64,000 nucleotides of DNA from Candidatus Woesearchaeota archaeon (lineage in GTDB: Archaea > Nanobdellota > Nanobdellia > Woesearchaeales > GCA-2686295): contig CALDOJ010000036.1 of NCBI GenBank assembly GCA_937912225.1, forward strand, positions 31,191-95,190. The letters are read 5' to 3'. Both the position numbers and the translations under genes were made by a program. The notes under the pieces were generated by a model that saw only the letters and a program-made list of their open reading frames with translations, ran no database searches and was not told where the DNA came from. Each line of letters starts with the position of its first letter. The stretch's first letter is position 1. Shown here one piece after another: positions 2 through 20,639 of this stretch.

Positions 2-3000
2 GTTTACAATAATGGTAGTGGATTCAAAAATATTTATGATGCTGATTGTAATGTTAATGGAAAAACAAATATTTATTACAATTTAACTTTAGATGCAATA
101 GGTGGAAACCACACCATCAGAGTTGTCATTGCATATTTGGGTACGCCAGGAGTTACTTGTGGAGCTGATTCTTCAACAGCAAAATGGACTGATACTGATG
201 ATATGACTTTTTATGTTAATCCACCACCTGATAATACTGTCCCCAGTGTTTCAAATCCTACGCCTGCAAATGGAACATTATATGAATTTCAAAGCGGATT
301 AGAAATAGATCTTTGCGTTAATATAACTGATAATTATGAACTAGATTCTAAAAGAGTTAATGTTACATGGAGTATTAATAGCCAAATATTTTCGCTTAGC
401 GCGTCTGGAGGAACATCTTATTGTTATGCATTTACAAATACTTCTTCAATAACAACTTATAATGTAACTTTTTTAGTTAATGATAGTTCTAATAACCAGA
501 ATAATTCGATAAATACTACTTTCATTATCCAAAGAACAACTAATATCACTATTGAATATCCTCTTCAAGGAAATGTTTATCCATACGAACCTCTTCAAAT
601 GAACATAACTGTTAGCGAAGGTTATGACGTGGATAAAGCATTTTACTCGTTAAACTCTGGTGCAAATACATCTATAATGAAAGACAGATATAATGCATCA
701 TTTACAACTTCTGATTCAGAAGGTGTGATTGGAGAAAACACTAGTACTTACAATAATCTTTCAATGTCTTTTAGAACAATTGAAAATATGAGTGTTAGAC
801 AAGTCGGATTACAATTAAAAAGAAATGGTTCTGGAAATAATTTTACTCAAATTCAAATAAGAACTGACAATGCAGGTCTTCCTTCATCCACTATTCTTGC
901 TTATGGAAACATTTCAAATAATTCTGTGAGCATTAATTACACCATGGTTAATATTACTTTAAACACCACTTTAAATTTAACAAATAACACTGTTTATTGG
1001 TTATTTTTAACACCTAATAGTTCAATTACAGATTTTTATACTTGGGAATCAAACAATAATAATTCTTATGCAACCGGAAATTATAGTAACAATGCAAGTT
1101 TAGATTTATTATTTTCAGTTTATGACAGATATAAATTTAGAACTATTTTTTCAGCGCTTTCAAAAAGCAACCACCAAATAATTGCTTATGCAAATAGTAG
1201 CTCTGAAGATAGCATTTCATCACCTTCAGTTAATTTCTCGATTGATTCAACAGCACCAATCATTTCAATTATTAATTACACGCCTTCAACAGCATCAAGT
1301 ATTGATCCAAATATAACAATTAATTATACAATAAATGTTACTGACAATATTGAAGTAGACACAGTTATAATTCAATATTTAAAACAAGGTAATTCCGTTT
1401 TTACAAATAGTACAACTGATAATTCAACAGGATTATTCATAGGAAATATTACCCCCACTTCCGAAGGTATTTGGATAGTTAGAGTTAAAGCAATTGACAG
1501 TTCTAACAATTCTAGACTCTCTTCAAATACAACTTTAAATGTAACTTATGAATATAATTGGAATATAACTCCAGGTTCATTTAATGAAACATCTGCGTTT
1601 TTAGATACAAACATCACTGTTGGAAATATTACTTTCAATAACTCTGGAGATTTTCCAATCAGTTTTAATATTTCTAAAACTGATTCAACTATTCCTTTAA
1701 TGTTTTTTAATGGTTCGGAAACATTTTCTTTTGTTGTTAGTCCATCAAGTCTTTCAATAATTTCAGTTATTACGACCGGACAAAATCTTGAAACTGAACA
1801 ACCAATGAGTATTTTTGTAAATGCTATAAATAGCACTTCAGAGCCAAGAAATAAAACTATAAACTTTACATTAATTTCGTATATTTCAGGTCCTTATTTG
1901 ACTGCTGAAATAACTACTTATGATTCAAATGTTAATCAAGGTCAAAATAGAATTGAATTAACTGCAAGAGTTAAAAATGTTGGTAATGAAACTGCTTATA
2001 ATGTTTCTAGTTATTGGGCTATTCCTAGTGATTGGACTGCTAAAACAAATTTAACTCAAAATTATTCAACCTTATCAATTGGAGAGCAAACTTCATTTAC
2101 AAGATATGTTAGTGTTGATTCTGATGCGTCGATTGGTAATAAAACTATTAACATAACAATTGTTTCGTCAGCCACTCAGAACAATTCTGATTCCAGAGTT
2201 GTTTTAGTTAATGGAACTGTTGAAGCAGAAGTTGTTGTTGTTAATAGTGGCGGAGGTGGGGGTGGCACTCGAACAGTTTACATTGCTCCTAGCGAAACTA
2301 AAGTTAATATTAGTTTAGAGGATATAGTTGAAATAAACAGAGGAACAAATGCAACCATCAATGCAACAATAGAAAACGTTGGTGATTTAGATTTACAGAA
2401 TGGTAGTTTTACTTTGGAAAATTTTCCATTAATTCATTATAAAATAACTCCTAATTCATTTGTTGAATTGAATACTAGTTCAAATTTCTCAGTTTCAATT
2501 TTTATTCAAATACCTAATTATTTTAATGGCGGGAAAAAAGAAGTTAGTTTTAATCTTGAAACAACAACCAAAGGAACAGTTAAGGAATTCAATAAAACTT
2601 TTACAATCATTGTTATTACTGAAGATAAAAGTTTAGCATTAGATTGTTTTAAAGAAGCAGAGAATTTGCTTAATATTAGTAAAGAAGAAGGACTTATAAT
2701 TAAAAGTTTAGATAAAAAACTTGTTGATGCAAAAAATAATTATGAAGATAAAAATTTTGTAGATGCAAATAATTTTTGTAAACAAATTCTAAAAGAATTA
2801 CAATTAGTTAAAGATATTAAAGTTAAAATCGACTCAATTCATAGTCGATATCAAGGATTAGAAGCTAATATATTTGAACTTAATGAACTTATAAGCTTAA
2901 TGGAGATGGCTTTTTCTCAGGAAGATTTTGAGCTTGCTAGTAAAAGAGCTGAACAAGCAGAATTATTATTAAATTTAAAAGAAGAAGAACAAAAAAGAAC

Positions 3001-3538
3001 TGTTAAAGAAGTATTTGAACTTGTTAAACTGAACAAAAAAGTTGTTGGTAGCTTATTAGTAATGGTTATTATAATCATTATTTTTGCTAATTCGTCACGA
3101 AAGCTTTTATCTGTTACAAAAAAACTGAATGTTCTTTCTGAACAACAAAACATATCTCATTCGAAAATTGATGATTTGCAAAGAAAATATTTTGTAAATA
3201 AAAGCATTCCAAGAATTTTATATGATAAAGAAAAAGCTTATCATACTAATAATCTTGCTATTCTTGAAAATAAAAAAAGTGAATTGAAATTAAAACGTTT
3301 ACAAATAATAAGTGGTAAAGATTTAGAAGATATTAAAAGAATTCAAAAAGAAGTTGAAGAAAATAAAAAAGAATTTCAAAGAAAATATTATGTTGATAAA
3401 ACTATAAGTAAAAAAACTTTCAAAAGATTAAATACTACTTTTGATAAAATCATGGACGAGTTAAATAAGAAACTTGAAATGAAAACAAAGAAAAAAATTA
3501 ATTTTAAACTTAAAAGATTGTTACGAAAACACAAATGA
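2..3538 (+). CDS. Large surface glycoprotein-type protein (Ig/CARDB-like repeats, C-terminal TM anchor, coiled-coil cytoplasmic tail); 5' end off-window
   Basis: The frame of the called 137..3538 ORF stays open back to base 2, and the TTG-start product lacks a signal peptide, so the true start is upstream of the window. About 65 N-x-S/T sequons by hand count. CARDB-like strings VKNVGNETAYNV and IENVGDLDLQNG. G6 linker. TM VVGSLLVMVIIIIIF. Lys/Glu coiled-coil tail with two LQRKY[FY] motifs. Confidence 0.6.
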   Translation, partial: VYNNGSGFKNIYDADCNVNGKTNIYYNLTLDAIGGNHTIRVVIAYLGTPGVTCGADSSTAKWTDTDDMTFYVNPPPDNTVPSVSNPTPANGTLYEFQSGLEIDLCVNITDNYELDSKRVNVTWSINSQIFSLSASGGTSYCYAFTNTSSITTYNVTFLVNDSSNNQNNSINTTFIIQRTTNITIEYPLQGNVYPYEPLQMNITVSEGYDVDKAFYSLNSGANTSIMKDRYNASFTTSDSEGVIGENTSTYNNLSMSFRTIENMSVRQVGLQLKRNGSGNNFTQIQIRTDNAGLPSSTILAYGNISNNSVSINYTMVNITLNTTLNLTNNTVYWLFLTPNSSITDFYTWESNNNNSYATGNYSNNASLDLLFSVYDRYKFRTIFSALSKSNHQIIAYANSSSEDSISSPSVNFSIDSTAPIISIINYTPSTASSIDPNITINYTINVTDNIEVDTVIIQYLKQGNSVFTNSTTDNSTGLFIGNITPTSEGIWIVRVKAIDSSNNSRLSSNTTLNVTYEYNWNITPGSFNETSAFLDTNITVGNITFNNSGDFPISFNISKTDSTIPLMFFNGSETFSFVVSPSSLSIISVITTGQNLETEQPMSIFVNAINSTSEPRNKTINFTLISYISGPYLTAEITTYDSNVNQGQNRIELTARVKNVGNETAYNVSSYWAIPSDWTAKTNLTQNYSTLSIGEQTSFTRYVSVDSDASIGNKTINITIVSSATQNNSDSRVVLVNGTVEAEVVVVNSGGGGGGTRTVYIAPSETKVNISLEDIVEINRGTNATINATIENVGDLDLQNGSFTLENFPLIHYKITPNSFVELNTSSNFSVSIFIQIPNYFNGGKKEVSFNLETTTKGTVKEFNKTFTIIVITEDKSLALDCFKEAENLLNISKEEGLIIKSLDKKLVDAKNNYEDKNFVDANNFCKQILKELQLVKDIKVKIDSIHSRYQGLEANIFELNELISLMEMAFSQEDFELASKRAEQAELLLNLKEEEQKRTVKEVFELVKLNKKVVGSLLVMVIIIIIFANSSRKLLSVTKKLNVLSEQQNISHSKIDDLQRKYFVNKSIPRILYDKEKAYHTNNLAILENKKSELKLKRLQIISGKDLEDIKRIQKEVEENKKEFQRKYYVDKTISKKTFKRLNTTFDKIMDELNKKLEMKTKKKINFKLKRLLRKHK

Positions 3539-4881
3539 TATTTCAAAAAACTAAACTAATAGGATTAAGTATTATGATTGTTTTATTAATCTGTTCTGTA
3601 GAGGGAGCAACTGAACAAAGCATATTATCCAGTCTTTCTAAAATTGAAGTTTTAAAACAAGAAATGATTGATTCAGGTATAAATGTTCTTTTAATGAATG
3701 ATTTGATTGCAGAAGTTAATATTTATCTTGATGAGAATAGATTCGATGATGCAGAGACGGTTATTCAATCAATTTATCAAATTAAAGATTCTGCTTTTAA
3801 AACTCAAAATGAAATGTCTCGTGTTAATAAACTATACCTCGAATTGTTAGATAAAAATATTAGTTTAGTAACTGTTAGTAATGCTAAACTTGAATCGGAT
3901 CTTGTTTATGCTAAAAGAGAGTTTGAAAATGAAAATTATGCAGAATCATTAACATTATTAACAAAAGTTGAGTCTGTTCTCTTAGAGAATATAGGACTTA
4001 GATTTAATTCATTAAAAGAATTAATTTTGGAGCTAGAATTAAAGGCTGAAGAATTAAATACTCCTTCTTCACGTATTAAAACTTTAAAAGATTTGCTTGA
4101 TGAATCATTAGAGAAAGGTTTAATTGATGAATTGATTATTATTGAAGATGAACTTGATGAAATAAAAAATAGTTTTGAATTTATCAAAGAACTTAGAGCA
4201 GATTTTTTATTATTAGAACAATCCAATCTTTCAACAGAGAGATTATCCGATGGTTTACGTGATGCAGAGATTGACTTAAGTTTTTCTGATTATAAATCTG
4301 CTAATGCCAAGTTTGCTGAACTGAAGCTTTTAAAAGATAAAATTTTGACTGTGAAAAAAAATGTTGAAACTTTAGAAAATCTTTTTTTAGAAGAAGAATA
4401 TGGTGATTTAGAAATTGAAGCTCTTGAATCTAGTTTAAAAAAAGCTAATGAAGAATTATACCTCGGCAATTACGAATTAGCTGAAGAAATAGTTTTGCAG
4501 GTTAAAATTGATTATGAAAATTTGAAAGCAGATTCATTGGTTAAAACAGTTGGTGCAAGAAAAGAGCAACTTAGCTTTCAAGAGTTTATTAAAAAAAATC
4601 TTGGTTTAATAGTAATCATTCTAATTGTTGGTATTTTGGCAATGATTTTAACAAAGAAAACTTGGATGTTTGCTTTAAGGAAAAAATTACTTAGAAATCA
4701 CAATAAAGAACTTGACGTTAATAGGAAAATGGTTGATGACCTTCAAAGAAAATATTACATTAAAAGAACTATTTCTAGAGAAACTTATGATGAAAGTTTT
4801 GAATTGCTTAGTGGAAACATAATGGAATTAGATGATAAGATTTCTTTATTAAACAAAAAGATTAAAAAGGACAAGAAATAA
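3535..4881 (+). CDS. Secreted coiled-coil protein with C-terminal TM anchor and short cytoplasmic LQRKYY-motif tail
   Basis: ATGA overlap with the upstream gene. N-terminal signal-like LIGLSIMIVLLICSVEGA, then a long heptad-rich Leu/Glu/Lys region. TM LGLIVIILIVGILAMILT. Tail DDLQRKYYIKRTISRETYDE matches the tails of the upstream protein. Confidence 0.55.
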   Translation: MIFQKTKLIGLSIMIVLLICSVEGATEQSILSSLSKIEVLKQEMIDSGINVLLMNDLIAEVNIYLDENRFDDAETVIQSIYQIKDSAFKTQNEMSRVNKLYLELLDKNISLVTVSNAKLESDLVYAKREFENENYAESLTLLTKVESVLLENIGLRFNSLKELILELELKAEELNTPSSRIKTLKDLLDESLEKGLIDELIIIEDELDEIKNSFEFIKELRADFLLLEQSNLSTERLSDGLRDAEIDLSFSDYKSANAKFAELKLLKDKILTVKKNVETLENLFLEEEYGDLEIEALESSLKKANEELYLGNYELAEEIVLQVKIDYENLKADSLVKTVGARKEQLSFQEFIKKNLGLIVIILIVGILAMILTKKTWMFALRKKLLRNHNKELDVNRKMVDDLQRKYYIKRTISRETYDESFELLSGNIMELDDKISLLNKKIKKDKK

Positions 4882-4892
4882 GAAGTATAATC

Positions 4893-5420
4893 ATGGATTT
4901 ATATGAAGAAATAAAAAACAAACAAATCGTATTAGTTGTTCTTCCAAAAGCACAGTATATAAATAAGTTAATGGAAGTTGTTAAAGCAATTGATTCTGTT
5001 TCAAAAAAGATTTGTTATGTTGCTTTAAATAAGCCTTATAATAGCATTATGAGCATGCTTCAATCACATGAAATTCTTGTTGAGAAGTATTTTTTTATAG
5101 ATGTTCTTACTAGCTCTGTTAAGATTCCTGAACCTATCGAGTATTGCGAGTTTGTTCAATCTCCAAGTGCTTTAACTGATATAAGCTTGGGTTTTTCTAA
5201 AGCCATGCAAGAGAAAGGTTGTGATAATGCTATTTTTGATACTATTTCAACATTAATGATTTATCAAGACATTGGAGAAATTATTAAATTTACACAAAAC
5301 ATGATGACTAAGGCTCGAGTTAGCAATATGAAATCAGTTTATGTTACTCTAAAAGAAGACAGTGAAGAGTTAATTAAAGATTTGATGATGTTTGTTGATG
5401 GCGTTATTGAGTTAGAATAA
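4893..5420 (+). CDS. KaiC/RecA-fold-like small protein without a recognisable P-loop
   Basis: Layout resembles KaiC/RAD55-type signalling ATPase domains (IVLVVLP... CYVALNKPY ... FIDVLT ... AIFDTISTLM ... SVYVTL). No GxxxxGK[ST] is present. The family call is by eye only. Confidence 0.3.
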   Translation: MDLYEEIKNKQIVLVVLPKAQYINKLMEVVKAIDSVSKKICYVALNKPYNSIMSMLQSHEILVEKYFFIDVLTSSVKIPEPIEYCEFVQSPSALTDISLGFSKAMQEKGCDNAIFDTISTLMIYQDIGEIIKFTQNMMTKARVSNMKSVYVTLKEDSEELIKDLMMFVDGVIELE

Positions 5421-5462
5421 AAAATGAAAAAATTAATAAATGAATAAACAAAGGTGATACTT

Positions 5463-5831
5463 ATGGCTAAGAAAATTTTACTTGTGGATGACGAACCACA
5501 CATTATTGAACTTGAAAAAGCAATTCTTACACTTGAAGGTTTTGAAATTTTAACTGCTGAAGATGGAGCAACTGCTCTTGAAATATTAAAAACAGAAAAG
5601 CCTGACTTAGTTATTCTTGACATGATGATGCCTGGAATGAGTGGCAGGGAGACTTGTGACTCTATTCGAAAGAATCCTAAGACTAAAGATTTGAAGGTTA
5701 TCTTTGTGACTGTTGCTAAGTTTTCTGAGATGGGTCAAAAAAGTCTTGAAGAACTTGGAGTTTCAGATTATTTGACTAAACCATTTGATAATGATGAGTT
5801 AGTTGCAAGAGTTAAGAAAGCTTTAAAATAA
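5463..5831 (+). CDS. Stand-alone response regulator receiver (CheY-like)
   Basis: KILLVDDEP, phospho-acceptor context LVILDMMMPGMSG, FVTVAK, YLTKPF. The ATG at 5463 follows AAGGTGAT, so the GTG at 5454 called by the ORF track lies inside the SD. Confidence 0.9.
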   Translation: MAKKILLVDDEPHIIELEKAILTLEGFEILTAEDGATALEILKTEKPDLVILDMMMPGMSGRETCDSIRKNPKTKDLKVIFVTVAKFSEMGQKSLEELGVSDYLTKPFDNDELVARVKKALK

Positions 5832-5839: not shown

Positions 5840-8800
5840 TTAATTATTTTCTTTAAATCTATTAAATACTGTTAGTTCGTGTTCTCCTTCTGCTCTCTTT
5901 GTTGTTGGAAGTGTAAAATAAAATGTTGAACCTTTGTTTAGCTTACTTTCAACCCACATACTTCCGCCTAATACTTCAATTATTCCTTTTGAAATTGCAA
6001 GTCCTAAACCAGTTCCACCAACTTTTCTAGTATATGAAGAATCTGCTTGGTAGAATCGTTCAAAGATTTTCTTTAAGTTTTTCTTTTCAATTCCTGTTCC
6101 TTCATCTTTAACTGCAAATAATAATTCTTTATCTTGTTTTTTAACTGAGATAATTATTTTAGTGTTAGGTTTGTCAGAATATTTGACAGCATTGTTTACC
6201 AAATTTACAATTACTTGTGATAACCTGCTTTTATCAACAATTGCATCTTGGATTTTAGAATCAACATTCATTTCTAATTCGACCTGTTTTTTAGCGGCCA
6301 TCACATACAATTCATTAACAACATCTTTTACTAATTCTGATAAATTAATTTTTTCAAAAAAGAATTTCATTGTTCCAAGGTCCAGTCTTGATAAATCTAA
6401 AATATCATCAATTAATTGTTTTAATCTATCTGCATCTTTCATTACAATGCTTAAATAATAATCTCGTTGTGTTTTATTTTCTAAAATCTTCTTATTTTGT
6501 AAAAGTGTTGCAAACCCGTGAATTGATGCTAATGGAGTTTTTAATTCGTGAGCGGTAACTGAAATAAACTCGCTTTTGTATTTGTCCATTTTCTTCATTT
6601 CTTTATTTGCAGCATTTAGTTCTTTATTGATTCCAACTAATCTTTTTTCAGATATCTCAAGTTCTTCTTTTGAAAGACTAACATCTTCAAGAATGTTAAG
6701 AACTGCAGTTCTTGTTTTTTCAAGTTCTTCGACTTTGTTATTTAACTCTACAGTTTTATTTTCAACTAAAGTTTCTAGTTCTTCTTCATGTAACTGTAAT
6801 TCTTTCCGAGATTCTTCTAATTCTTTAGTTCTTTCTTTAACAGTTATTTCTAAGTTAGTAGTTATTTTTTGAAGTTCGTTTGTTTTTTCATCAACTTCTT
6901 TTCTAAGAGTGTTTGTTAATAAAAAATTAAAAACTATTCCTATTATTAAAATTGCAAACATAATTCCTGCAGTAGAAGTCCAAATACTATTTATAGTCTG
7001 TTCAACAAAAGAAACTACTTCTGCTTCATCCATTTTAGTTACAATTCCAACATCTAATTCGGGTATATAATTGGTTACAGCAATAACAGGTGTGTTTCGA
7101 TAATCATTAAAATCTAAAAACACATCTTGATTATTTAACAAAGCTTGTGTTATTGGAATTTCAGTATTTTCTTTTGGAATGATATCTTGAGCTTCTGCTT
7201 CTGTTTCAAACCTTCTTTTGGAAAAAAATTCTGCATCTCCATTTCTATTCCTAAATGCCACTAAACTTTCTCCAGTTTCTCCCATACCAATTTCGTTATT
7301 AAATTTTTCAACTAAGACTTCTGTGTTTAAATTTGCAACTAACACTCCTTCATTATAAGGTATTGAAATAGAAAAAAATATTTTTTCTTCAGTCTCAGAA
7401 TAATAAACTGATTTAAAATAAGTTTCAATTTTTCCAAATAGGAATGCCTCCTCAGTTGATTTATCTAAACCAATATTTTGTTCGTTTGAAGAAGCAATTA
7501 CTATTCCGTCAGAATTTAAAATAAATAACTCGTTAAATTCATTGATGTTATTAACAAGCTTTTTTTGTTCTTCGATTGAAAGTTCTTCATCAATTGCAAA
7601 AATTTTAAGTCTATATTCTTGCTCTTTAAGATATTCCTGAATAAACTTTGATTGTAAGTTAGCAATTGTAGATAATTGACTTGCTATTGTTAATGATCGT
7701 TCTTCTTTCATAGACTGAGTAACATTATATGTGTTAAAAAGAAATAATCCTAATATTAATAACAATGAAATACTAAGTAAAATTACAACAGTGTTTTTCT
7801 CAAAATGAATTAGTTTTAATTTATATAAAAAAAATACTATTATTAGAATTATGATACCTACACCTATAAACACAAACATTAACTTAGTTAAGGATAATTC
7901 TTCTGATTTAACTTCTTCCTTGAATTGAGATATGTCCTGAATAACAACAACTGTTCCAACTTTATTTCCTCCAGCATCATAAAGTGCAAAACCACCATCT
8001 ACAAACGTCTTTTCGCCTAATGAAAATTCATGAAACATGCTCCCTTCATCAGATGATAATTTAAAGTGATTCTCATTAAATGAAGCTTCATTAAAAAGCA
8101 AGTTTGTTTTATCTGTAGAATCAATCAAAAGAAAGTCGTCCATATCATAATAATTATTTCTCAGCCCTTTAAGTTCTCTTATAAAAGCCCATTCATGTTC
8201 ATCAATGAAATCTTTTTTAACAACTATTCCATAATCAAAACCTGTTTGTTGTTTCATAGCGTTAATGAACTTATCAATTTCTTGACCGAATTCAACATAA
8301 CCAATTAATTCACCATTATAATAATAAGGATGAACTACTCTTAATGCAAAGGCAGTCTTTCCAAGTTCTATTCCAGCACCCCAAGAATTTGATAATTTAG
8401 ATTGTTCAAATGTGATTCTTGTTATTTCATCACCAAAAATATCTTTATTATGAACTCGTAAAAGATTAGTTCCGTTTAAATTATAAAAATAAAAATGTGT
8501 TATATCATATACTTCCTTGTTTTTATTAAACATTTCAACAACTGAATTATACAATTTATCTCTATCTCCTTCTAAAAAGATTTTTTTATATTCTTCTTGT
8601 TCCATAAAATTAGTCATTAAATTTTTCAAAGTAGTTACATCTTTTTCATTTAAAACATCAAAAACTATTTTTGCGTCTTGAATATTTTTTAAAACTAATT
8701 TTTCAAGAGAGATTTCAGATAATAATTCTTCCTTAGAAGTAAGTGTGATTCCTGATTCATATTCATCCAAGTAAGTAGTTGCTGCAACATGTAATCCAAC

Positions 8801-9310
8801 ACCATCAGCTGTTTTAGCATTAACAAGAACTATATGCATATATTTCTGTTTAATACTTCCATCTGCTTCTTCCCAATCATAAATACCTTCAGCTTCAACC
8901 CCGCCTTCTGTTTTTGACATAATATTCCAAAAACCAGGAAGTTTATCTGCAAGATTATGAAGGTCTAAATTAACTATGCTTGGATTAACGTGAAATCTTG
9001 CAATTAAAGAATTGTAATCAGTTACTGCTGTATAACCAGATTTACCAACTTGTTGAACTGCAATTTCTTGAAAGTAAGAATCATTTTGAAGATCTAAAAC
9101 TGTTTTATCAGGATTTAATGTAATATAAATCTCGATTTGTTTTGCAACATCAATTGCTTTTTGTTTAATAAACAATTCCGCTTGTTTTAAGAATTCGTTA
9201 GTTGAAGAAGATTCATAATCTGCTACTGATGTAACAGTATTACTTTCAGCAACAACTAAAGTTGAAACTAATAAAAACAATACAAAAATTAATTTAAACA
9301 ATTTATTCAT
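5840..9310 (-). CDS. Membrane sensor histidine kinase with two extracytoplasmic sensor regions
   Basis: Signal/TM at the N-terminus, a TM pair near residue 480-530 and a third TM near 790. Long coiled coil with ELEKTRTAVLNILEDV. H-box SVTAHELKTPL, N-box LVNNAVKY, G-boxes VKDEGTGIE and GGTGLGLAISK. Confidence 0.9.
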   Translation of the reverse strand: MNKLFKLIFVLFLLVSTLVVAESNTVTSVADYESSSTNEFLKQAELFIKQKAIDVAKQIEIYITLNPDKTVLDLQNDSYFQEIAVQQVGKSGYTAVTDYNSLIARFHVNPSIVNLDLHNLADKLPGFWNIMSKTEGGVEAEGIYDWEEADGSIKQKYMHIVLVNAKTADGVGLHVAATTYLDEYESGITLTSKEELLSEISLEKLVLKNIQDAKIVFDVLNEKDVTTLKNLMTNFMEQEEYKKIFLEGDRDKLYNSVVEMFNKNKEVYDITHFYFYNLNGTNLLRVHNKDIFGDEITRITFEQSKLSNSWGAGIELGKTAFALRVVHPYYYNGELIGYVEFGQEIDKFINAMKQQTGFDYGIVVKKDFIDEHEWAFIRELKGLRNNYYDMDDFLLIDSTDKTNLLFNEASFNENHFKLSSDEGSMFHEFSLGEKTFVDGGFALYDAGGNKVGTVVVIQDISQFKEEVKSEELSLTKLMFVFIGVGIIILIIVFFLYKLKLIHFEKNTVVILLSISLLLILGLFLFNTYNVTQSMKEERSLTIASQLSTIANLQSKFIQEYLKEQEYRLKIFAIDEELSIEEQKKLVNNINEFNELFILNSDGIVIASSNEQNIGLDKSTEEAFLFGKIETYFKSVYYSETEEKIFFSISIPYNEGVLVANLNTEVLVEKFNNEIGMGETGESLVAFRNRNGDAEFFSKRRFETEAEAQDIIPKENTEIPITQALLNNQDVFLDFNDYRNTPVIAVTNYIPELDVGIVTKMDEAEVVSFVEQTINSIWTSTAGIMFAILIIGIVFNFLLTNTLRKEVDEKTNELQKITTNLEITVKERTKELEESRKELQLHEEELETLVENKTVELNNKVEELEKTRTAVLNILEDVSLSKEELEISEKRLVGINKELNAANKEMKKMDKYKSEFISVTAHELKTPLASIHGFATLLQNKKILENKTQRDYYLSIVMKDADRLKQLIDDILDLSRLDLGTMKFFFEKINLSELVKDVVNELYVMAAKKQVELEMNVDSKIQDAIVDKSRLSQVIVNLVNNAVKYSDKPNTKIIISVKKQDKELLFAVKDEGTGIEKKNLKKIFERFYQADSSYTRKVGGTGLGLAISKGIIEVLGGSMWVESKLNKGSTFYFTLPTTKRAEGEHELTVFNRFKENN

Positions 9311-10584
9311 TTTTTCTTTTCTAATTTTAATTCTAATTCTTTAACTTGTTTTTTTAATTCAACCATTTTCATTTCTCGTCCAACTGTTAAATTACTAAAT
9401 TTTTCTAGTTGTTCAATTTTTATTTTAAGCTCTTTTGTTCGGCTTTCTACTTCTGATTCTAATTCTTTCTCGTGATTTTTAATTTTATTATTTGATGTTT
9501 TTAACTCATCAGACATTTTATTAAATGCGACTGATAATTCTCCAAGTTCGTCTTTTGACTTGACTTGAATTTTATAATTAAGATTTTCTTTTGCGAATTC
9601 TTCAGTTCCTTTAACTATTTCTCCTAAAGGCGAAGTTATTGTTTTTGAAAAAAGGAATGCGAAAATACTTGCAAAAATTGTAATTAATAAACTAACAAAA
9701 ACTGTTGCTTTCATCAAATCATTTACTGGCTGTAATGCTTCTTCTGTATCTATGGCTGCTAACAGACAAATTTCTCGTTCTGGAATCCAAATATGATAAT
9801 CTATCACTTCAATATTTCTATAACCAATATATTTCAAAGAACTTTCTTTTCCGTCTAAGCAATCTTCAACACCTGAATTATAAATTGCGCCTTTAAGAGC
9901 CATGTCGTCTTTAAATCTTGATTCTGTTAACATATAATTAAATTTGTTCACTAAGTATGTTTCTCCTGTGTCACCCATACCAGAACGTTCAGTCAATATT
10001 GAACTAATAACTTTTAGATTAACTCTGCCAACCAATACTCCTTTAACTATTCCATTTTCATCTTTTATTGGTGTTGAAACAGTCATAGAAGGTAAATTTA
10101 ATGATAAATCATAATAAAAAGGTTGAATATAAGATTCTGTTAAACCACGCTTAAAATAAATTTCATTTGATTTAATCTTGCCTTCTTGTTTTTTATCAGT
10201 TGACATATGGGCTATGCCTTTTTCATTTAAGATAAATAATTCAAAAAAATTTTGACTTGGAGAATTTAAAGTTTTTATTAAATAATCTTGAAGTTTATGA
10301 TGAGCAATCATATCATTAGAATTTGAAACTTCATGAAAATTATTCATAGCATAAAATAAATTCAGAAGAGTCTCATCTTGAGATAATTCTTCTAAATGAT
10401 ATTTTTCTTCAATAATAAAACTTTCAACTTGATTGGCTTTTAATACTGCTATACTTTCTAATTGAGATCGGACTCTATCTTCAATAGAAGATTTACCTAT
10501 TATAAAAAAAATTAAACTACTTACAAGTATAATTATTAGAGCTAAACTAATAAACACGCTTATTAATTTTATACTTAGTTTCAA
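9307..10584 (-). CDS. Membrane sensor protein (Cache-like ectodomain + HAMP + coiled coil) with no kinase or other output domain
   Basis: Two TM helices flank a ~270-aa ectodomain. HAMP-like ITSPLGEIVKGTEEFAKENLNYKIQVKSKDELGELSVAFNKMSDEL. Ends in a coiled coil. ATGA overlap with the kinase gene. TTG start after AGAGGT. Confidence 0.7.
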   Translation of the reverse strand: MKLSIKLISVFISLALIIILVSSLIFFIIGKSSIEDRVRSQLESIAVLKANQVESFIIEEKYHLEELSQDETLLNLFYAMNNFHEVSNSNDMIAHHKLQDYLIKTLNSPSQNFFELFILNEKGIAHMSTDKKQEGKIKSNEIYFKRGLTESYIQPFYYDLSLNLPSMTVSTPIKDENGIVKGVLVGRVNLKVISSILTERSGMGDTGETYLVNKFNYMLTESRFKDDMALKGAIYNSGVEDCLDGKESSLKYIGYRNIEVIDYHIWIPEREICLLAAIDTEEALQPVNDLMKATVFVSLLITIFASIFAFLFSKTITSPLGEIVKGTEEFAKENLNYKIQVKSKDELGELSVAFNKMSDELKTSNNKIKNHEKELESEVESRTKELKIKIEQLEKFSNLTVGREMKMVELKKQVKELELKLEKKK

Positions 10585-10643
10585 ATTTTAAGTTCTAACC
10601 TCTTTTTTTAATAGTTCAATACATTCCAATATTTAAATCCGGT

Positions 10644-12548
10644 TCATTCTAAAAACTCAGTTGTAAAAACAGTTTCAATATCAAAAGAGTTTTCAAGTTC
10701 TCCAACAGAATCTAAATCTTCATATAGTTTCTGCCATTTTTCTTTAGTCATAAAACCTATTTTTTGTGATGAATCTGCTTTAAAATATTGAATTGAAGAT
10801 TGAAGCATGTTTTTTTGATGTACAGGGTCTAATCTTGCATCATATTCAAAAACAAATCCTGTTGAATCCTCAGGGTTTTCATAAACATACTCCCATCCTT
10901 TCAAAGTAGCTGATAAAAACTTTCTAACTAATTCCGGATTAGTTTTTATAAGCTCATCAGTTGTAAAGATAACATTATAATAACTATCAAATCCAAAATC
11001 TGAAGGGTACAAAACATTGACTTCATAATTCTCTTCTAAAGCTTCTTGTAATTCATTTATAGAAACTCCAGCAACTAAATCAACATTTTCATCAAATAAA
11101 GATTGCAAACCATATTGTTTAGATACAAAATTAATATTTGAAGAATCAACACCATTATTTTCTAAAAGAATCTTTTTGATGATTGCTTGTGAACCAATAC
11201 TTGCAATAGTTGTTCCTTCTAAATCTTTAAGAGATAAAATATTTTTTTCTTTTAAAGACAAAAACACTGTTGGATTCTTATAATAAACTGCCGCAATCGC
11301 CTTTAGTTTTGCACCAGAACTAATCTTCTTCAATAAATCAATTGGAATAGTAACTCCAAATTGATCATCTCCATTTATAACTCTATCTTCAATTGACGCA
11401 TCATAACCTGCTGAATGCAAATCAACTTTTAATCCTTCAGCACCATAATATCCTAGTTGGTCTGCAGCATAGAAACCTACGAATTGATTTTGATGCAACC
11501 AAGATAATTTTACATTTACTTCTTCTTCTTCTTCTTCTTCAGAATAAATTTTCTCTAAAAATTTAGTTGTATAAACTAATTCAGAACCAATTGGTCTACT
11601 TAATATTCCTTGTTCAAATAAAATTCTTTGAGTACCTTCCCATTCTTTAGATTCCATCCACCCAAGTGGACTGTCACCAGTATGAATTAAAGGAATACTC
11701 TGACTTAACATGTAAGTTTCATGTTCTCTTGTGCTATCAACAGCGTATTTTAAAACAGTTGTAACTGTTTCTTCTTCATTCTCAATAGCGTATTGCCAGC
11801 CTTTCAAAGTAGCTCTTAGAAAATCTTCTACTAATTCAGGATTATTATTAATCATATCATCAGTTGTAAACAATACATCTGCATAAATATTAGCTCCATA
11901 ATCGGCCATTAAAATCGTGTTTACTTCATGACCTGCTTGCATTGCTAAATGTGGTTCGTTAATAATATAACCAGTTGATACATCAGTATCACCAGCTAAT
12001 AATTCAGTCGCATCATAACCAATAGTTACTTCATTAATTTGACTACGATCAATCTTAAGCCTATTCATCATAGATGCATACAAAATTCCGACATTAATAT
12101 CAGTTCCATCACTAGCTCTTTCAATACCAACAGTTTTACCAACAAAATCTTGAGGACTAGTAATTCCGCTAGTTCCTAAAGAGTAAGCAACAACTGGATT
12201 AATTTTATATATTACTGCAATAGCTTTTAGTGGTAGACCTTGTTCTCGAGCTAAAATTAATTCATCAGCACCAGTTATTCCAAATTCGACATCACCTTTA
12301 GCAACAGCAGATATGGTTGGTTCTTCAAATGAAAAAGGCTCTATATTAACATTTAATCCTTCATCAGAATAAAAACTGTTTTCTTTAGCAACATAATTAC
12401 CTGCGAATTGAGATTGATGAAGCCATTTAAGTTTTAAAGTTACATCAGTTAGTTCTTTTTCTTTAAATAAGAAAAAACTAGATAACACTAAAATAGCAAC
12501 TAAAACAATAGCTGAGTTAATTAAAAAGGTTTTTTTTGTATGTTTCAT
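10644..12548 (-). CDS. Tandem-duplicated NMT1/THI5-like (NitT/TauT-type) solute-binding protein, membrane/signal anchored
   Basis: Two homologous halves (LKLKWLHQSQFAGNYVA... and VKLSWLHQNQFVGFYAA...) joined by an E7 linker. N-terminal hydrophobic anchor. Confidence 0.65.
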   Translation of the reverse strand: MKHTKKTFLINSAIVLVAILVLSSFFLFKEKELTDVTLKLKWLHQSQFAGNYVAKENSFYSDEGLNVNIEPFSFEEPTISAVAKGDVEFGITGADELILAREQGLPLKAIAVIYKINPVVAYSLGTSGITSPQDFVGKTVGIERASDGTDINVGILYASMMNRLKIDRSQINEVTIGYDATELLAGDTDVSTGYIINEPHLAMQAGHEVNTILMADYGANIYADVLFTTDDMINNNPELVEDFLRATLKGWQYAIENEEETVTTVLKYAVDSTREHETYMLSQSIPLIHTGDSPLGWMESKEWEGTQRILFEQGILSRPIGSELVYTTKFLEKIYSEEEEEEEVNVKLSWLHQNQFVGFYAADQLGYYGAEGLKVDLHSAGYDASIEDRVINGDDQFGVTIPIDLLKKISSGAKLKAIAAVYYKNPTVFLSLKEKNILSLKDLEGTTIASIGSQAIIKKILLENNGVDSSNINFVSKQYGLQSLFDENVDLVAGVSINELQEALEENYEVNVLYPSDFGFDSYYNVIFTTDELIKTNPELVRKFLSATLKGWEYVYENPEDSTGFVFEYDARLDPVHQKNMLQSSIQYFKADSSQKIGFMTKEKWQKLYEDLDSVGELENSFDIETVFTTEFLE

Positions 12549-12566
12549 TTATTAGCCTCCAGCTCT

Positions 12567-13355
12567 TTAAATCCATTTATTAGTTATTTCTTCTATTTGT
12601 TTTCCCCAAATCATCGTACCTAATACTTGATTAACTTCATTCATCAAAAGATTATTTTCTTTCATTGAAGCTAAGCCATAAAATTCTTGAGTAAAAGGAG
12701 TACCTACTACTTTTAATGAAGGATTATTTTTAACCAATTCTAAACCTGCAATGTAATCTATAATGATTGCACTTAAGTTATCATTCAATAATGCAACTGT
12801 TGCAAGATCATAATCTTCATAAGATAATACTAAAGATTCACCAGCATATTTTACTGCTTCATCATAACTAGTTGTATCCATTTGAACACCAACTTTTTTA
12901 CCAAGTAAATCTTCAGGAGTTAAAACTGATTCATCTTCAGCACTCACAACAATTACTTGACCGGCATTAAAATAAGGGATGGAAAATAACATTTCTTGAG
13001 ATCTTTCATCAGTAATAGTTATTGAAGAAATTGCAAAATCAACTTCTCCAGCTTTCACAGCAACGAATAATTCATCCCAACCATAATTAACAAATTCAAT
13101 TTCTAAATTTAAACGCAAAGCTATTTCTCTTGCAACATCAACGTCTATTCCTGCAAATTCACCATTTTCATCTAAGAACTCCATTGGTTCATAAGGAATA
13201 TTTGTACCAACAATTAACTTTCCTCGTTCTTGTACTTTTGAAAACGAATCATCACTTAATTGTTCATTTAACAATTCATCATTAGTTGATGTACAACTAA
13301 TAGTCATCAAAGACAATATTACTAGTACTAAAAAAAACGCTTGTTTATATTTCAT
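12567..13355 (-). CDS. Family-3 (amino-acid type) solute-binding protein, probable lipoprotein
   Basis: LIVGTNIPYEPMEFLDENGEFAGIDVDVAREIA...VDFAISSITITDERS...FSIPYFNAGQ. Signal ends in MTISCTS. Confidence 0.75.
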   Translation of the reverse strand: MKYKQAFFLVLVILSLMTISCTSTNDELLNEQLSDDSFSKVQERGKLIVGTNIPYEPMEFLDENGEFAGIDVDVAREIALRLNLEIEFVNYGWDELFVAVKAGEVDFAISSITITDERSQEMLFSIPYFNAGQVIVVSAEDESVLTPEDLLGKKVGVQMDTTSYDEAVKYAGESLVLSYEDYDLATVALLNDNLSAIIIDYIAGLELVKNNPSLKVVGTPFTQEFYGLASMKENNLLMNEVNQVLGTMIWGKQIEEITNKWI

Positions 13356-13368
13356 ATTTATTTCACCT

Positions 13369-16300
13369 TCATTGTTTTTTCTTTAATCGTTTAATTTCTT
13401 CTTTTAGTTTGATCATTTGTAATTCTCTATTAATTGCATACGTATGAAATTTTTCAAGTTCTTCAGTTCTTCTCTTCAATGCTTCATCAGATTTTTTTCT
13501 ATGAGTAACATCTCTAAGAGCTCCTGCTATTCCAATAATCTTCCCAGAAGAATTTTTAATAGGTGCTTCATCAATCTCAGCCCAAAATATTTCTCCATTT
13601 TTCTTCTTGAATTCTAAAATATAAGGTTTTTGAATTACTCCTGTCTTTAAAGCTTTCACAGTTAGTTTTAAACCTTCATCATTAATAGGGTTTTTTGTTG
13701 TTAAAGTAGTCCATTTAACCATCATCTCTTCTGGTGTGTAACCAAATACTCTTTTAGAAAGAGGATTCACATATGATAATTTATGATTTGTATCATGAAT
13801 GTAGAACATGTCATCACTATGTTCAATAATAGTTTTATATTTTTTCTCACTAGCTTCTAACAAGTTCTCTGCTTCTTTTTGATCAGTTATATCTCTAAAT
13901 ATTTCCATAATAACTTTTTTACCTTTAAGATTCATACCAACATGATTAATTTCATAAGTTCTATTCCCAGCAACCCCTGTTGTAATAATACTTCTTCGCT
14001 CACCTAATTTAATAGGTTTCTTCAATGGACAATCACCACATTGTTTTTTATTATCCTTATAAAGATTATAACATTTCTTTCCAATTGCTTTTTTTCCAAA
14101 AATGTTTAAGAAAAATTCATTCATGTAAAGAATATTTAAGTTTTCATCAACAATATCCATTCCTTCAGGTAAAGCCTTAAGAATATTTTCTGAAAACTCT
14201 TTTTCTTTTCGAAGTTCTCCTTCCGCAGTCTTTATATTTGTGATATCTGAAAGAACTCCCTCATAACCTTTCGCCACACCATTTTTATTATATACAATTC
14301 TAACACTATCTCGCACCCATTTTATATCTCCAGTCTTAGTTTTAAGTTTATACTCACTAAAAAAGTATTTATCTTTTTTCTTAAGAGCTTTATTTAAAAC
14401 AGGAGTTATACGCGTTACATCATCCTCAAACATTAGACTAACATACGATCTAACTTTGTTATTAATAACATCACTAACAGGAAAACCTGTAACTTCTTTA
14501 AATGCAAAACTTGCAAAAGAAAAAGTCCAATTCATATCACATTTGTAAACAACACCAGGAACAGTGTCTATCATATTTCTAAATTGTTCCTCGCTTTCTT
14601 TTAATTTTTCTTCTGCAAGTTTTTTATCTGTAATATCTTGAGTTGTTCCTATTAATTTAACTACAACTCCTTTCTCTTTTTTAGTTTTGCATCTTGCATT
14701 TACCCACACAATGTTCCCAGAAGGTTGAACTAAACGTATTTCTATATTATATCCAACACCTGTTTTAGTAGTATTCGCAACAGAATCATTAAATAAATTC
14801 CAATCCTTTGGATGAATATATTTCTTATGCTCTTTATAATTAAGTTCTCCTTTTTTTGGATCAATACCAAATATTTTAAATAATTGTTCAGACCAAATAG
14901 GTTGTGCAGTTTTAACATCAAAACTCCAACTTCCAATACTGGCTACTTCTTGTGCTTCCATTAATTGTTCTTCACTTACTATTAATTCTTCTTCTGCTTG
15001 TTTTCTTTCAGTAATATCTCTAATAACACCAACTACTTTAACTGGTTTATTATTCTCATAAATTAATTGTCCAGATTCTTCAGCAAAAATATATTTTCCA
15101 TTCTTAAGTTTAAGTCTGAATTCTGTTGTCGTAACTTTTCCCGTCTTCCAGAGCATTTCAAAATCTTTCATAACAGATTTCAAATCATCAGGATGAACAA
15201 AATTAGACAAAGGTTTTCCAAGAACTTCTTTTACTCTATAACCATATTTACCAATATTATCTGAAACAAAAATAATATTTCCATTAATATCATAACTATA
15301 AATTATGTCTGAGACTTTATTAACAAGAGTTTTGAATTTTTCTTCACTTTCTTTTAACTTTTTCTTTGAAAGTTCTCTGGAAGTAATATCTTGAAAAATA
15401 CAATGTGTTCTTTGAAACACACCATTTTCATCATATTCTGCAGTTCCATTATATTCAACAAGGATATGTTCGCCATTTTTTTGTTTCATAGAAAAGAGAA
15501 TATCACAAGCAGTACCTGTTTTTTTAAAATTAGAAAAATTTGATTTAAAATCATTTAATTTATCAGATGAAACAAACTCTGAAAAATTCTTACCAATAAC
15601 ATCTTGTTTTTTATATCCAAGAATGTTTAACCAAGCAGGATTAACGTCTAATAAATCCCCGTTTGAATCTAAAGATTGATATGGAACTGGAATTTTTTGG
15701 TAAACTGTTCTAAATTTATTCTCGCTTTCTATTAACTTAGTTTCAAAAAGCTTTTTTTCAGTTATGTCTTGAGTTATTCCAATTGCATTTATTGCTTTAC
15801 CTTTTTTATCAAATAATATCTTTGCTTTTTCTTTTACCCACTTTACTTTTCCTTTTACTATAATACGATGTTCAAGATTATAAACTCCAGACTTTAAACC
15901 TTCAGTCCACTTTTTAGCAACATATTCTTTGTCATCAGGATGAATGGTTGCTAAAAAACTTGATAAATTTAGAGAAGCTCCTTGTTTAACTCCAAATATC
16001 TTATAATTTTGTTCAGTCCATTCTAAAATGTCATTAACAATATCTAACTTCCAAGTTCCAATCAAACCAATTTCTTGCGATTTTAATAATTTTGATTCAC
16101 TTTCTTTTAAAGCTTCTTCTGAAAGTTTTTTTTCAGTAATATCAACTGCAGCAGCATAAATATATTTACCGGCATGCGTTGTTTGCCATTCTAAAGTTCT
16201 ATAAGAACCATTCTTATGTTTATATCGATTAACAAAATTAATTATAGAGTCTCCTTTTAGTTGTTTTTCTTTAAGCTCAACAGCTATTCTTTTTAAATCA

Positions 16301-17742
16301 TCAGGATGAGAAAGTTTAGTCCAACCAAGATCTAAAAATTCTTTTTTAGTATAACCCAACATAGATTTACAAGAATTATTAACATTAATTATAGTCCCAT
16401 CAACTTTTGAAATAGTCATTAAAACAGGCGCAGATTCAAAAATATCTTTTAATTTTTCTTCACTTTCTCTCAAATCTTCTTCTGCTTTCTTACGTTCTGT
16501 TGTTATAGTAAAATAAACTGATATGCCTTCTTTAGAAGGGTAAACTCTAACATCATACCAATTAATATAAGGTTTCTTTCCAAAAAAGATTTCAAAAGTA
16601 ACTAATTTATTATTTTTTAAAGCATAAGTATATTTTTCTTCAAATATACTTCCCTTAGCTTCTTTAAACACTTCATTAAATATTTGTTTGCCTAAAATAT
16701 CTTTGCTCTTTTTATTTAAAAGTTCTTCAGATTTTTTATTAAAATAAGTAAATCTAAGGTCTTGATTTAGTGTGAAAAATGCATCACTAATGCTTTCCAC
16801 AGTTGTTCTAAGTTTCTCTTCACTTTCAATTAATTTTTTTCCTATTCTATTTTTTCTCAGAAAATTGTTGAAAAGACCACTTATTGTTGAAATTTCGTCC
16901 TTAACTTTTTTATCTATTTTCGTCTCAGATTCAACAATATCCAAACCTATAAATCCTTTTAATTCATTGTTCTCTGTTAAAGGTATGGTGATTAAAGATT
17001 TGATTTTTTGTAATTGAAAATGTTTTTTTTCTAATTTTGCTTCAGAAGGTAATTTTGCTACACTTTCAACAACAAAAGGTTTTAGTTTTAGTATTTGTTT
17101 ATTAAACCAAGGTAATTCTTTTTTTAAATTAATATTTTTTAAATTATTTATTTCTGGCTTCACTCCTTTTCTACACCATTCATGAGTATTTGACATAAAC
17201 TTTCCTGAAACAGAAAAAATATAACTTCTATCTGCATGAAAATAATTTCCAATAGTTTCTAAAGCTTTATTTATAACATCATCAACTAATTCTTTATCAT
17301 AATCAATAAAAGACATAGAAAGTTCATTTAAGATATTCTCAAACAACAATTTTTGCTTTAAAAGTTTTTCTGCGTTTTTTTGTTCAGTAATATCTCTAAG
17401 AATTGTTTGTAAAGCAATTACTTTACCATTTTTCTTTATTGGTCGACTTTTATACTCCATAAAAAAGTTTCCTTTCGGAGCAATTATTTCAACAGAACCA
17501 TGAGTTGGTTTACCTTTAGCTAAGTCAAGCATTTCTTTTGTAAGCTGAAGAACATGTTTTTTTACAACCAATTTATACGTGGACTCACCAATTAAATCTG
17601 ATTCTTTAAAGCCATATTTATTAACTGCTTTATTTGCATAAAGAACTCTACCTTTTAGATCTATAAATAGAATTATATCTGTAAAGTTATCAAACAGGTC
17701 TGATTTAAAATTACTAGTACTAATCTCTGGTTTTTTACCCAT
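13369..17742 (-). CDS. Giant cytoplasmic multi-PAS/PAC (+GAF-like) sensor protein without output domain
   Basis: Ten recurring PAC-end linkers D[IV]T-x-[KR]K-x-EE-L-x-SE counted by eye. A GAF-like segment near residues 150-290. One PAS carries C-x10-C-x2-C. The protein ends in a short coiled coil. Confidence 0.8.
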   Translation of the reverse strand: MGKKPEISTSNFKSDLFDNFTDIILFIDLKGRVLYANKAVNKYGFKESDLIGESTYKLVVKKHVLQLTKEMLDLAKGKPTHGSVEIIAPKGNFFMEYKSRPIKKNGKVIALQTILRDITEQKNAEKLLKQKLLFENILNELSMSFIDYDKELVDDVINKALETIGNYFHADRSYIFSVSGKFMSNTHEWCRKGVKPEINNLKNINLKKELPWFNKQILKLKPFVVESVAKLPSEAKLEKKHFQLQKIKSLITIPLTENNELKGFIGLDIVESETKIDKKVKDEISTISGLFNNFLRKNRIGKKLIESEEKLRTTVESISDAFFTLNQDLRFTYFNKKSEELLNKKSKDILGKQIFNEVFKEAKGSIFEEKYTYALKNNKLVTFEIFFGKKPYINWYDVRVYPSKEGISVYFTITTERKKAEEDLRESEEKLKDIFESAPVLMTISKVDGTIINVNNSCKSMLGYTKKEFLDLGWTKLSHPDDLKRIAVELKEKQLKGDSIINFVNRYKHKNGSYRTLEWQTTHAGKYIYAAAVDITEKKLSEEALKESESKLLKSQEIGLIGTWKLDIVNDILEWTEQNYKIFGVKQGASLNLSSFLATIHPDDKEYVAKKWTEGLKSGVYNLEHRIIVKGKVKWVKEKAKILFDKKGKAINAIGITQDITEKKLFETKLIESENKFRTVYQKIPVPYQSLDSNGDLLDVNPAWLNILGYKKQDVIGKNFSEFVSSDKLNDFKSNFSNFKKTGTACDILFSMKQKNGEHILVEYNGTAEYDENGVFQRTHCIFQDITSRELSKKKLKESEEKFKTLVNKVSDIIYSYDINGNIIFVSDNIGKYGYRVKEVLGKPLSNFVHPDDLKSVMKDFEMLWKTGKVTTTEFRLKLKNGKYIFAEESGQLIYENNKPVKVVGVIRDITERKQAEEELIVSEEQLMEAQEVASIGSWSFDVKTAQPIWSEQLFKIFGIDPKKGELNYKEHKKYIHPKDWNLFNDSVANTTKTGVGYNIEIRLVQPSGNIVWVNARCKTKKEKGVVVKLIGTTQDITDKKLAEEKLKESEEQFRNMIDTVPGVVYKCDMNWTFSFASFAFKEVTGFPVSDVINNKVRSYVSLMFEDDVTRITPVLNKALKKKDKYFFSEYKLKTKTGDIKWVRDSVRIVYNKNGVAKGYEGVLSDITNIKTAEGELRKEKEFSENILKALPEGMDIVDENLNILYMNEFFLNIFGKKAIGKKCYNLYKDNKKQCGDCPLKKPIKLGERRSIITTGVAGNRTYEINHVGMNLKGKKVIMEIFRDITDQKEAENLLEASEKKYKTIIEHSDDMFYIHDTNHKLSYVNPLSKRVFGYTPEEMMVKWTTLTTKNPINDEGLKLTVKALKTGVIQKPYILEFKKKNGEIFWAEIDEAPIKNSSGKIIGIAGALRDVTHRKKSDEALKRRTEELEKFHTYAINRELQMIKLKEEIKRLKKKQ

Positions 17743-20602: not shown

Positions 20603-20639
20603 CTCTTATGTGGATTTATTATTATTTGTTGTTTTCTAA

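Follow-up and report, generated by a model that had tools for sequence, protein, structure and literature searches.

A repeated cytoplasmic tail domain on paired surface proteins encoded beside KaiC-family genes in Woesearchaeota and other DPANN archaea

The left end of a 64 kb stretch of DNA from a Candidatus Woesearchaeota archaeon (contig CALDOJ010000036.1; this whole stretch is called the window) contains four genes on the same strand, in DNA of ~29% G+C. Two of these encode membrane-anchored surface proteins, designated BIG and CC. They are followed by the genes for a 175-amino acid (aa) KaiC-like protein, K175, and a stand-alone CheY-type receiver. A first-pass annotation of the window had noted the motif LQRKY[YF], twice in BIG and once in CC. 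This motif marks the centre of a cytoplasmic helix-loop-helix domain of ~34 residues that had no name before and is referred to here as the tail.

BIG consists of an ectodomain rich in N-glycosylation sequons, a single C-terminal transmembrane (TM) helix, and a cytoplasmic part with two tails. The length of 1133 aa that was first given for it was too short. Its open reading frame (ORF) is open to the window edge, the part inside the window is at least 1178 aa, and the full protein on the source contig has 1303 aa. A match to NPCBM_assoc/NEW3 (3.7e-8) was found in BIG. The start-stop overlap ATGA between BIG and CC (3535-3538) is present as described, and the spacing between CC and K175, given as within 12 nt, measures 11 nt. 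An active P-loop KaiC ATPase gene upstream of BIG had been overlooked. It encodes 354 aa with the sequence GGPGTGKT and lies 17 nt upstream of BIG, outside the window, on the source contig (L051, 5011-6075). The ATPase also has an N-terminal domain of ~110 aa that is DUF5752-like.

The tails can be placed in the cytoplasm, as had been predicted. A K/R-rich stretch follows each TM helix of BIG and CC, CC has an N-terminal signal peptide, and the sequons are found mostly in the ectodomain of BIG. There are 69 N-x-S/T sequons in this ectodomain (27.5 expected from composition) versus three in the tail region. It was also stated that every copy of the motif comes after a TM helix. This is correct for copies 1 and 3, which begin 24-28 residues past the helix, and incorrect for copy 2, which sits ~90 residues on, behind copy 1.

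The three LQRKY[YF] peptides occur as they were quoted, and the motif is found in no other real ORF of the window. It is kept at all three places in the orthologues from two Woesearchaeota metagenome-assembled genomes, although the proteins have diverged. A genome scan with a K175 alignment yielded 46 loci for comparison, labelled Woese-, Nano-, Aenigmat-, Diapherotrites or Iainarchaeota, in which gene calls are greedy longest-ORF calls. A hidden Markov model (HMM) of nine Woesearchaeota copies matched proteins of Aenigmatarchaeota and Diapherotrites among the 3,487 ORFs of these loci, with independent E-values (iE) from 3e-6 down to 7.7e-7. Three HMM iterations, on the same loci as those later counted, gave 53 tail domains in 34 ORFs and 21 loci. 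The genomes that possess tails belong to Woesearchaeota, Aenigmatarchaeota, and Diapherotrites/Iainarchaeota. A conserved domain is thus recovered by profile from three phyla, and the objection that the motif might be ordinary low-complexity coiled coil fails.

The consensus of the tail is h-K-x-[LV]-Q-x-x-Y-[FY]-x-x-[KG]-x-[IM]-[SPDG]-x-x-x-[YF], and a heptad-like helix comes after it. Conservation of Q9, Y12, and Y23 is 90% or more in the alignment of 53 domains. The placement of the tail is also regular. The first copy always begins 20-31 residues past the TM helix, the second begins 86-96 residues past it, and the last copy ends 7-23 residues before the C-terminus in almost all proteins. 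A profile of the three window copies was run against 1.84 billion representative proteins and gave 18 matches at E<=1e-3. Of these, 16 are true tails, so the domain is both rare and specific. One of the two spurious matches (P0057) is a repeat protein with the sequence AVKEFQRKYG, and the 5-mer is unspecific by itself. The full-length database matches have two architectures, of ~1300-1390 aa or ~390-460 aa, with the tail C-terminal in each.

At the DNA level, the three copies contain an identical 13-mer, CAAAGAAAATATT, which occurs three times in the 64 kb, at 3179, 3377, and 4744. Shuffling gave an expectation of 0.06, and 0 of 100 shuffles reached three. The identity had been taken as meaningful. 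It is explained by codon bias instead; it is uninformative because CAA, AGA, AAA, and TAT are the dominant codons (0.89, 0.71, 0.84, and 0.86, respectively). A recent DNA duplication as the origin of the 13-mer was rejected, since the three tail copies are just 51-55% identical in pairwise DNA comparison. Their proteins are 24-38% identical.

A single-sequence AlphaFold2 (AF2) model of the BIG C-terminus has a helix broken at YFV-NKSIP-RILY and at YYV-DKTIS-KKTF, leaving loops of five residues. The hydrophobic positions of helix 2 are spaced i, i+3/4, i+7. Searches of the tails against Pfam and NCBIfam gave no match above threshold. Seven of the 53 tails have a weak in-register match to PF22887 (DUF7022) at profile positions ~86-123 of 166, all sub-threshold with a best E of 1e-3. 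The DUF7022 family may contain a related hairpin. A profile search of the Protein Data Bank (PDB) with the tail returned only tetratricopeptide repeat (TPR) and coiled-coil noise. Word-indexed protein searches with the tail-plus-TM segment and with the 53-tail alignment returned identical fragments only, or nothing. The coordinates of the features are given in Table 1.

Table 1. Features at the left end of the window.
Feature	Position	Strand	Remarks
BIG, C-terminal 1178 aa of a 1303-aa surface protein	2..3538	+	ORF open at window edge
BIG TM helix VVGSLLVMVIIIIIFA, then cytoplasmic K/R-rich stretch	3041..3088	+	
Tail domain copy 1, IDDLQRKYFVNKSIPRILYDKEKAYHTNNLAILE	3167..3268	+	profile iE 5e-11; model: helix, NKSIP loop, helix
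Tail domain copy 2, KKEFQRKYYVDKTISKKTFKRLNTTFDKIMDELN	3365..3466	+	profile iE 7e-10; model: helix, DKTIS loop, helix; pLDDT 86-89
CC, 448 aa: signal peptide, all-helical ectodomain, TM (nt 4600-4653), one cytoplasmic tail	3535..4881	+	
Tail domain copy 3, VDDLQRKYYIKRTISRETYDESFELLSGNIMELD, in CC	4732..4833	+	profile iE 3.7e-10
K175, 175-aa inactivated KaiC-like protein (iKaiC), without Walker A	4893..5420	+	
Stand-alone CheY-type receiver, 122 aa from ATG	5463..5831	+	mechanical ORF list begins at GTG 5454
Convergent sensor histidine kinase (dCache_3, dCache_1, HisKA, HATPase_c)	5840..9310	-	

The motif had been said to recall short C-terminal domains of the SHOCT type. This holds at the level of shape, as far as the single-sequence model goes. 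In that model the tail would, like SHOCT, be ~30 residues with two short helices and a tight turn. Both are mostly at or near the C-terminus and often after a TM helix, and the C-terminal location of the tail agrees with the predominantly C-terminal placement of SHOCT. The likeness does not extend to the sequence. PF09851 (gathering threshold 27 bits) had no match at E<=10 to the three window tails, the 148-aa BIG tail, or any of the 53 tails in the 21 loci. SHOCT possesses a strongly conserved turn Gly and a Glu in helix 2 (PMC3581485). In the window tails the Gly position is N, D or K (elsewhere given as K, N, D or R) and the conserved Glu is absent; Gly is found only in some Aenigmat- and Iainarchaeota copies. 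The tail differs from SHOCT in further respects. Its helix 1 has an invariant Gln and Tyr of its own, and its helix 2 is prolonged by a long heptad-like stretch. The domain also occurs in several copies, as a rule three to a cassette, and it is tied to KaiC-family genes. The tail is SHOCT-like in form and is not a SHOCT member.

Distant tails come closer to SHOCT. They have a K-G turn with the next helix starting I-[ST]xxx[YF], as SHOCT does. In Iainarchaeota-type loci there are repeats fused to K175 that are near-canonical SHOCT (PF09851 E=2.7e-4 and 2.5e-3, sub-threshold). The tail profile aligned to these repeats in hhalign over 30 columns, ungapped and in register, at 55.8% probability. 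The fusions combine K175 with a long coiled coil and, at the C-terminus, two SHOCT-like repeats (L039 9311-11335, L042 3-1298, and L044 2-1288). The tail proteins next to these three fusions have the most SHOCT-like (K-G) turns.

The genes form a cassette. In Woesearchaeota the order is KaiC ATPase, BIG with two tails, the stalk-like helical protein CC with one tail, and K175. Two loci (L008 and L011) have an additional unit of a KaiC ATPase followed by a one-tail protein in front of the cassette. In Aenigmatarchaeota, BIG and CC are one chain of ~1390 aa (L023 11601-15773, L024 12483-16676, L038 11379-15563, and L029 3-1970) with the order ectodomain, TM, two tails, TM, helical ectodomain, TM, and one tail, and K175 follows this three-tail chain. 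In the Diapherotrites locus L039, three one-tail proteins are followed by the K175 fusion. Exactly three tails were found by profile in 15 of the 21 cassettes, and a degenerate third copy is visible by eye in two more (L033 and L037). The remaining cassettes are cut by contig ends or deviate (L043 and L057). The three tails can be distributed 2+1, three in one chain, or 1+1+1. Because BIG and CC can be fused, and because the count of three is kept under any split, they would appear to work as one complex with the tails acting jointly. As a separate observation, the Aenigmatarchaeota fusions also carry a Laminin_G_3 (lectin-like) domain.

The link of the tail to KaiC-like genes, which the first-pass annotation had suggested, was seen in both search directions. 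Starting from the K175 loci, 31 of the 34 tail genes are in runs flanked by K175 or a KaiC ATPase. Within-locus shuffles gave 15.6 +/- 2.8 with a maximum of 26, and 0 of 10,000 reached 31. K175 is directly downstream of 16 of the 23 tail-gene runs. In the reverse test, which started from tail matches in the representative library and made no use of K175, a KaiC ATPase was upstream in 4/4 loci and K175 was directly downstream in 3/3 contigs that were long enough. One of these loci (L057) has its cassette amid housekeeping genes, with a different ectodomain and with CheY and the histidine kinase not nearby. PADLOC gave no defence-model match for BIG, CC, or K175, and only generic P-loop matches for the ATPase. 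The possibility of a defence system was rejected, as there was no specific match.

K175 had been described as a KaiC/RecA-like protein lacking a Walker A, and both parts of the description were borne out. The motif GxxxxGK[ST] is absent from all of 23 K175-family members examined, and strand 1 enters helix 1 directly via PK. In contrast, GG[PAC]G[TS]GKT is present in 19 of 19 neighbouring KaiC ATPases. The AF2 model of K175 is confident (predicted local distance difference test, pLDDT, 91.2; predicted template modelling score, pTM, 0.87) and has a RecA-like alpha/beta core. Foldseek of this model against the PDB returned the RecA-superfamily ATPase PH0284 (TMq 0.77), FlaH 4yds, and KaiC 7s66/8zn5, all at probability 1.00. 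K175 has 42 close homologues that are 46-76% identical, many with precomputed PF24336 matches. The window protein itself falls below the thresholds of Pfam KaiC PF06745 (16.0 bits, E=0.008; threshold 26.6 bits) and DUF7504 PF24336 (15.6 bits, E=0.023; threshold 27). Distant family members pass the first at 30.5-33.5 bits, relatives pass the second at 31-35 bits, and distant members also come close to the DUF835 threshold. Since Walker A is absent in all 23 members despite the KaiC/RecA fold, K175 is an inactivated KaiC (iKaiC) and not an ATPase.

K175 also has three cysteines that are invariant or almost so, C41, C85, and C110, and strongly conserved FFIDVLTS, FDxISTL, and KDLxMFVD blocks. These could be a redox site, a metal site, or a binding surface.

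A number of known systems are similar to K175 in part. The iKaiC signalling modules DUF7504, DUF835, MEDS, and iKaiC-REC share its P-loop-less KaiC/RecA fold and its linkage to a receiver (REC), and the published catalogue of archaeal signalling proteins lists fusions of the types iKaiC-REC, REC-DUF835, and MEDS-REC (Makarova 2017, via Galperin 2018, PMC5847659). Unlike the catalogued iKaiC-REC, K175 is a stand-alone protein of 175 aa, unfused to REC, and the window protein reaches none of the Pfam thresholds. The two surface proteins with tails are the other conserved partner of K175, a context for which no description was found in the literature searched. ArlH (FlaH) is likewise a single-domain KaiC-like protein, and its structure 4yds is the second-best structural match of K175. 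In the archaellum motor, ArlH is a KaiC-fold protein under a membrane machine and is linked to the CheY pathway through ArlCDE and CheF, and it offers a precedent for such a placement. It differs from K175 in that it has a P-loop and binds ATP. In addition, genes for ArlI, ArlJ, and archaellin are absent here, and the partners are tail-bearing surface glycoproteins.

The fourth gene was identified as a stand-alone receiver, and PF00072 matches it at 107.5 bits (E=5e-31). Its sequence has the acidic pocket (DD), the phospho-acceptor Asp (in VILDMMMP), and the expected Thr (in VTV) and Lys (in TKPF). Its start is most likely the ATG listed in Table 1, behind a ribosome-binding-like site, GGTGA. 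K175 and CheY are not separated by an oligo-T run. Of 31 CheY genes in the loci, 28 adjoin a member of the K175 family (9.1 +/- 2.4 in shuffles, of which 0 of 5,000 reached 28); a histidine kinase adjoins CheY less often, in 18 of 31 loci. As the K175 family is so tightly tied to stand-alone CheY, a link of K175 to signalling is reasonable. The convergent Cache-type kinase is the probable cognate kinase of CheY. From the gene arrangement, the receiver is plausibly both the partner of this kinase and functionally tied to K175, for which the REC-iKaiC fusions known from other proteins are a precedent. A rough tree of the K175 family, a crude neighbour-joining one, has three clades: one that is tail-linked (Aenigmat- and Iainarchaeota), one that is always upstream of CheY, and a Woesearchaeota clade. 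The last holds the window K175 and is a mix of tail-linked members and members in the arrangement histidine kinase, CheY, K175. The window and L007 have a single K175 between CC and CheY.

In the preferred reading, the tails would serve as a docking or assembly platform, by which the glycosylated surface complex is tied both to the KaiC-type proteins and to two-component signalling. Read from sequence and gene order, this proposal is held with about even confidence. BIG and CC would form one membrane complex, and its three cytoplasmic tails would be the platform that recruits the KaiC-type proteins by contact with them. K175 would connect the complex to the adjacent CheY and Cache histidine kinase, possibly through CheY phosphorylation. 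The signal could run outside-in or inside-out, on the archaeal "KaiC hub" principle. The first-pass hint that the tails feed a cytoplasmic signalling step is likewise hypothetical.

Several points weigh against this proposal. The 46 loci were gathered via K175, so the forward co-occurrence is biased by the collection, and the sample of the reverse test is four loci only. In 26 of 47 K175 loci a tail protein is absent within 10 kb, and many K175 genes are with CheY and a histidine kinase alone. As this is about half of the loci, K175 does not need the tails. In three closely related loci (L005, L006, and L009), ~6 kb, including a membrane Ser/Thr kinase gene, lies between the tail-linked K175 and a second paralogue that precedes CheY. 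Direct K175-CheY adjacency is therefore not universal. The comparison of K175 with the neighbouring KaiC ATPases in hhalign gave no meaningful alignment or similarity, so the kinship of K175 with KaiC is drawn from structure and from family members that are intermediate between them. For the BIG C-terminus, the AF2 model has pLDDT of 54-89 and pTM of 0.36 and is usable for secondary structure only. With canonical SHOCT, oligomerisation was not seen in experiments (PMC3581485).

The main alternative is a structural module, which is considered rather unlikely. BIG and CC would be an S-layer-like or adhesin coat, with BIG as the large canopy and CC as the coiled-coil stalk, each anchored at its C-terminus, and their tails would bundle via the heptad-like helix 2 and fix the stoichiometry. 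The KaiC ATPase and K175 would serve in assembly, turnover, or anchoring as ArlH does, and CheY and the histidine kinase would be mere neighbours. The constant three tails, however they are split among polypeptides, and the hydrophobic spacing of helix 2 are what would be expected from bundling. The active ATPase invariably heads the cassette, and in L057 the cassette lacks nearby CheY and histidine kinase genes. The many sequons of BIG and its C-terminal anchor recall archaeal S-layer glycoproteins, and the sizes of BIG and CC may be likened to those of SlaA and SlaB. In Sulfolobales, one operon encodes SlaA, an outer protein of very large size, and SlaB, a stalk of ~450 aa with coiled coil and a C-terminal TM; they are heavily glycosylated. 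BIG has its own TM anchor, unlike the SlaA/SlaB pattern, and SlaB is not known to have a conserved cytoplasmic tail domain or KaiC neighbours. The structural alternative is also difficult to reconcile with the K175 family being the tightest neighbour of CheY and with iKaiC domains being known output or input partners of receivers. Self-bundling would leave the KaiC-family gene beside nearly every tail run unexplained. A docking platform and a bundled coat are not mutually exclusive and can coexist.

In another, improbable reading the tail would be an amphipathic hairpin of the SHOCT-like type, lying against the inner leaflet of the membrane, that stabilises or clusters the anchors without contact to the KaiC-like proteins. 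The bihelical shape and juxtamembrane position would fit such a role, and SHOCT-like domains in bacteria are predicted to anchor at the inner leaflet and to aid the assembly of membrane complexes (PMC11237479). The fusions of K175 to SHOCT-like repeats could bring K175 to the membrane. However, the tail proteins are already anchored by TM helices, and copy 2 is far from the membrane, at ~90 residues. The domain is charge-rich, and a polar Gln and two Tyr are among its best-conserved residues. The near-obligate KaiC-family neighbourhood would also be left unexplained. Chance similarity in Lys-rich low-complexity coiled coil of an AT-rich genome, with the 13-mer as a by-product, would suit the base composition, the codon bias, the spurious match to the 5-mer, and the lack of a Pfam or PDB profile match, but it is effectively refuted by the recovery of the domain in three phyla with its conserved Q, Y, and Y and its fixed TM spacing and protein position, by the shared architecture of 16 of the 18 database matches, and by gene-neighbourhood statistics far outside chance.

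The docking proposal can be extended to a surface-contact device of DPANN archaea. BIG and CC would be a lectin/Ig-type complex, and the three tails would dock a split KaiC that consists of an active ATPase ring and an inactive K175 ring, with K175 talking to CheY and the histidine kinase. In this full form the idea is speculative and is thought unlikely to hold. If it is true, the KaiC signalling hubs proposed for archaea would have their first defined receptor input, and the device might be how these episymbionts sense or hold their host.

KaiC-like proteins have been proposed as the main signalling hubs of archaea, and the inputs to these hubs are largely obscure. The cassette is a concrete candidate for such an input, with surface proteins, a small tail, active and inactive KaiC partners, and CheY and a histidine kinase adjacent. 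It is conserved over three DPANN phyla, in which contact with the host is made at the cell surface and surface genes are mostly unannotated. The tail extends the poorly understood SHOCT-like class by a member of like form that has a clear candidate for its binding partner and is kept at three copies. The components are of known kinds (iKaiC, KaiC ATPase, CheY, and a SHOCT-like hairpin). The tail family, the copy number of three, and the surface-to-KaiC link appear to be new; the tail or cassette was not found described in the literature searched, and an earlier mention may exist.

Other genes recur beside the K175 and CheY genes in related loci. A membrane Ser/Thr kinase of ~800-830 aa (Pkinase, 5.9e-54) is directly after K175 in L005 (9093-11591), L006 (10722-13175), and L009 (8919-11327), and is absent in the window. 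It is pure speculation that the conserved Tyr/Ser of the tails could be targets of a kinase. A convergent pair of ~76 aa and ~260 aa (6-8 TM) is beside K175 or CheY in L006 (17470-18479), L009 (15529-16532), L014-L016, L019, and L056 (6914-7950), and is also absent in the window. Pfam gave no match for this pair or for the recurrent neighbours of 101 aa and 370 aa.

Behind the histidine kinase of the window is a dense sensor array on the minus strand (9307-17742). It contains a dCache-HAMP protein without an output domain (9307-10584), a double NMT1 binding protein (10644-12548), an SBP_bac_3 protein (12567-13355), and a 1457-aa protein with at least seven PAS domains in which no kinase domain was detected (13369-17742). 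A 695-aa protein at 42489-44576 (-) had a weak phmmer match to the KaiC ATPase. It was rejected as a relative; it is a CDC48-type double AAA ATPase and is unrelated. Another surface module is present on the minus strand at 17789-27553. It contains a PKD protein (24611-27553), a CarboxypepD_reg protein (22851-24614), a HerA-like ATPase with a DUF5752 match (20640-22829), and three ORFs without a Pfam match, and the tail domain is in none of its proteins. The DUF5752-type domain is common to this HerA-like ATPase and to the KaiC ATPases of the cassettes.

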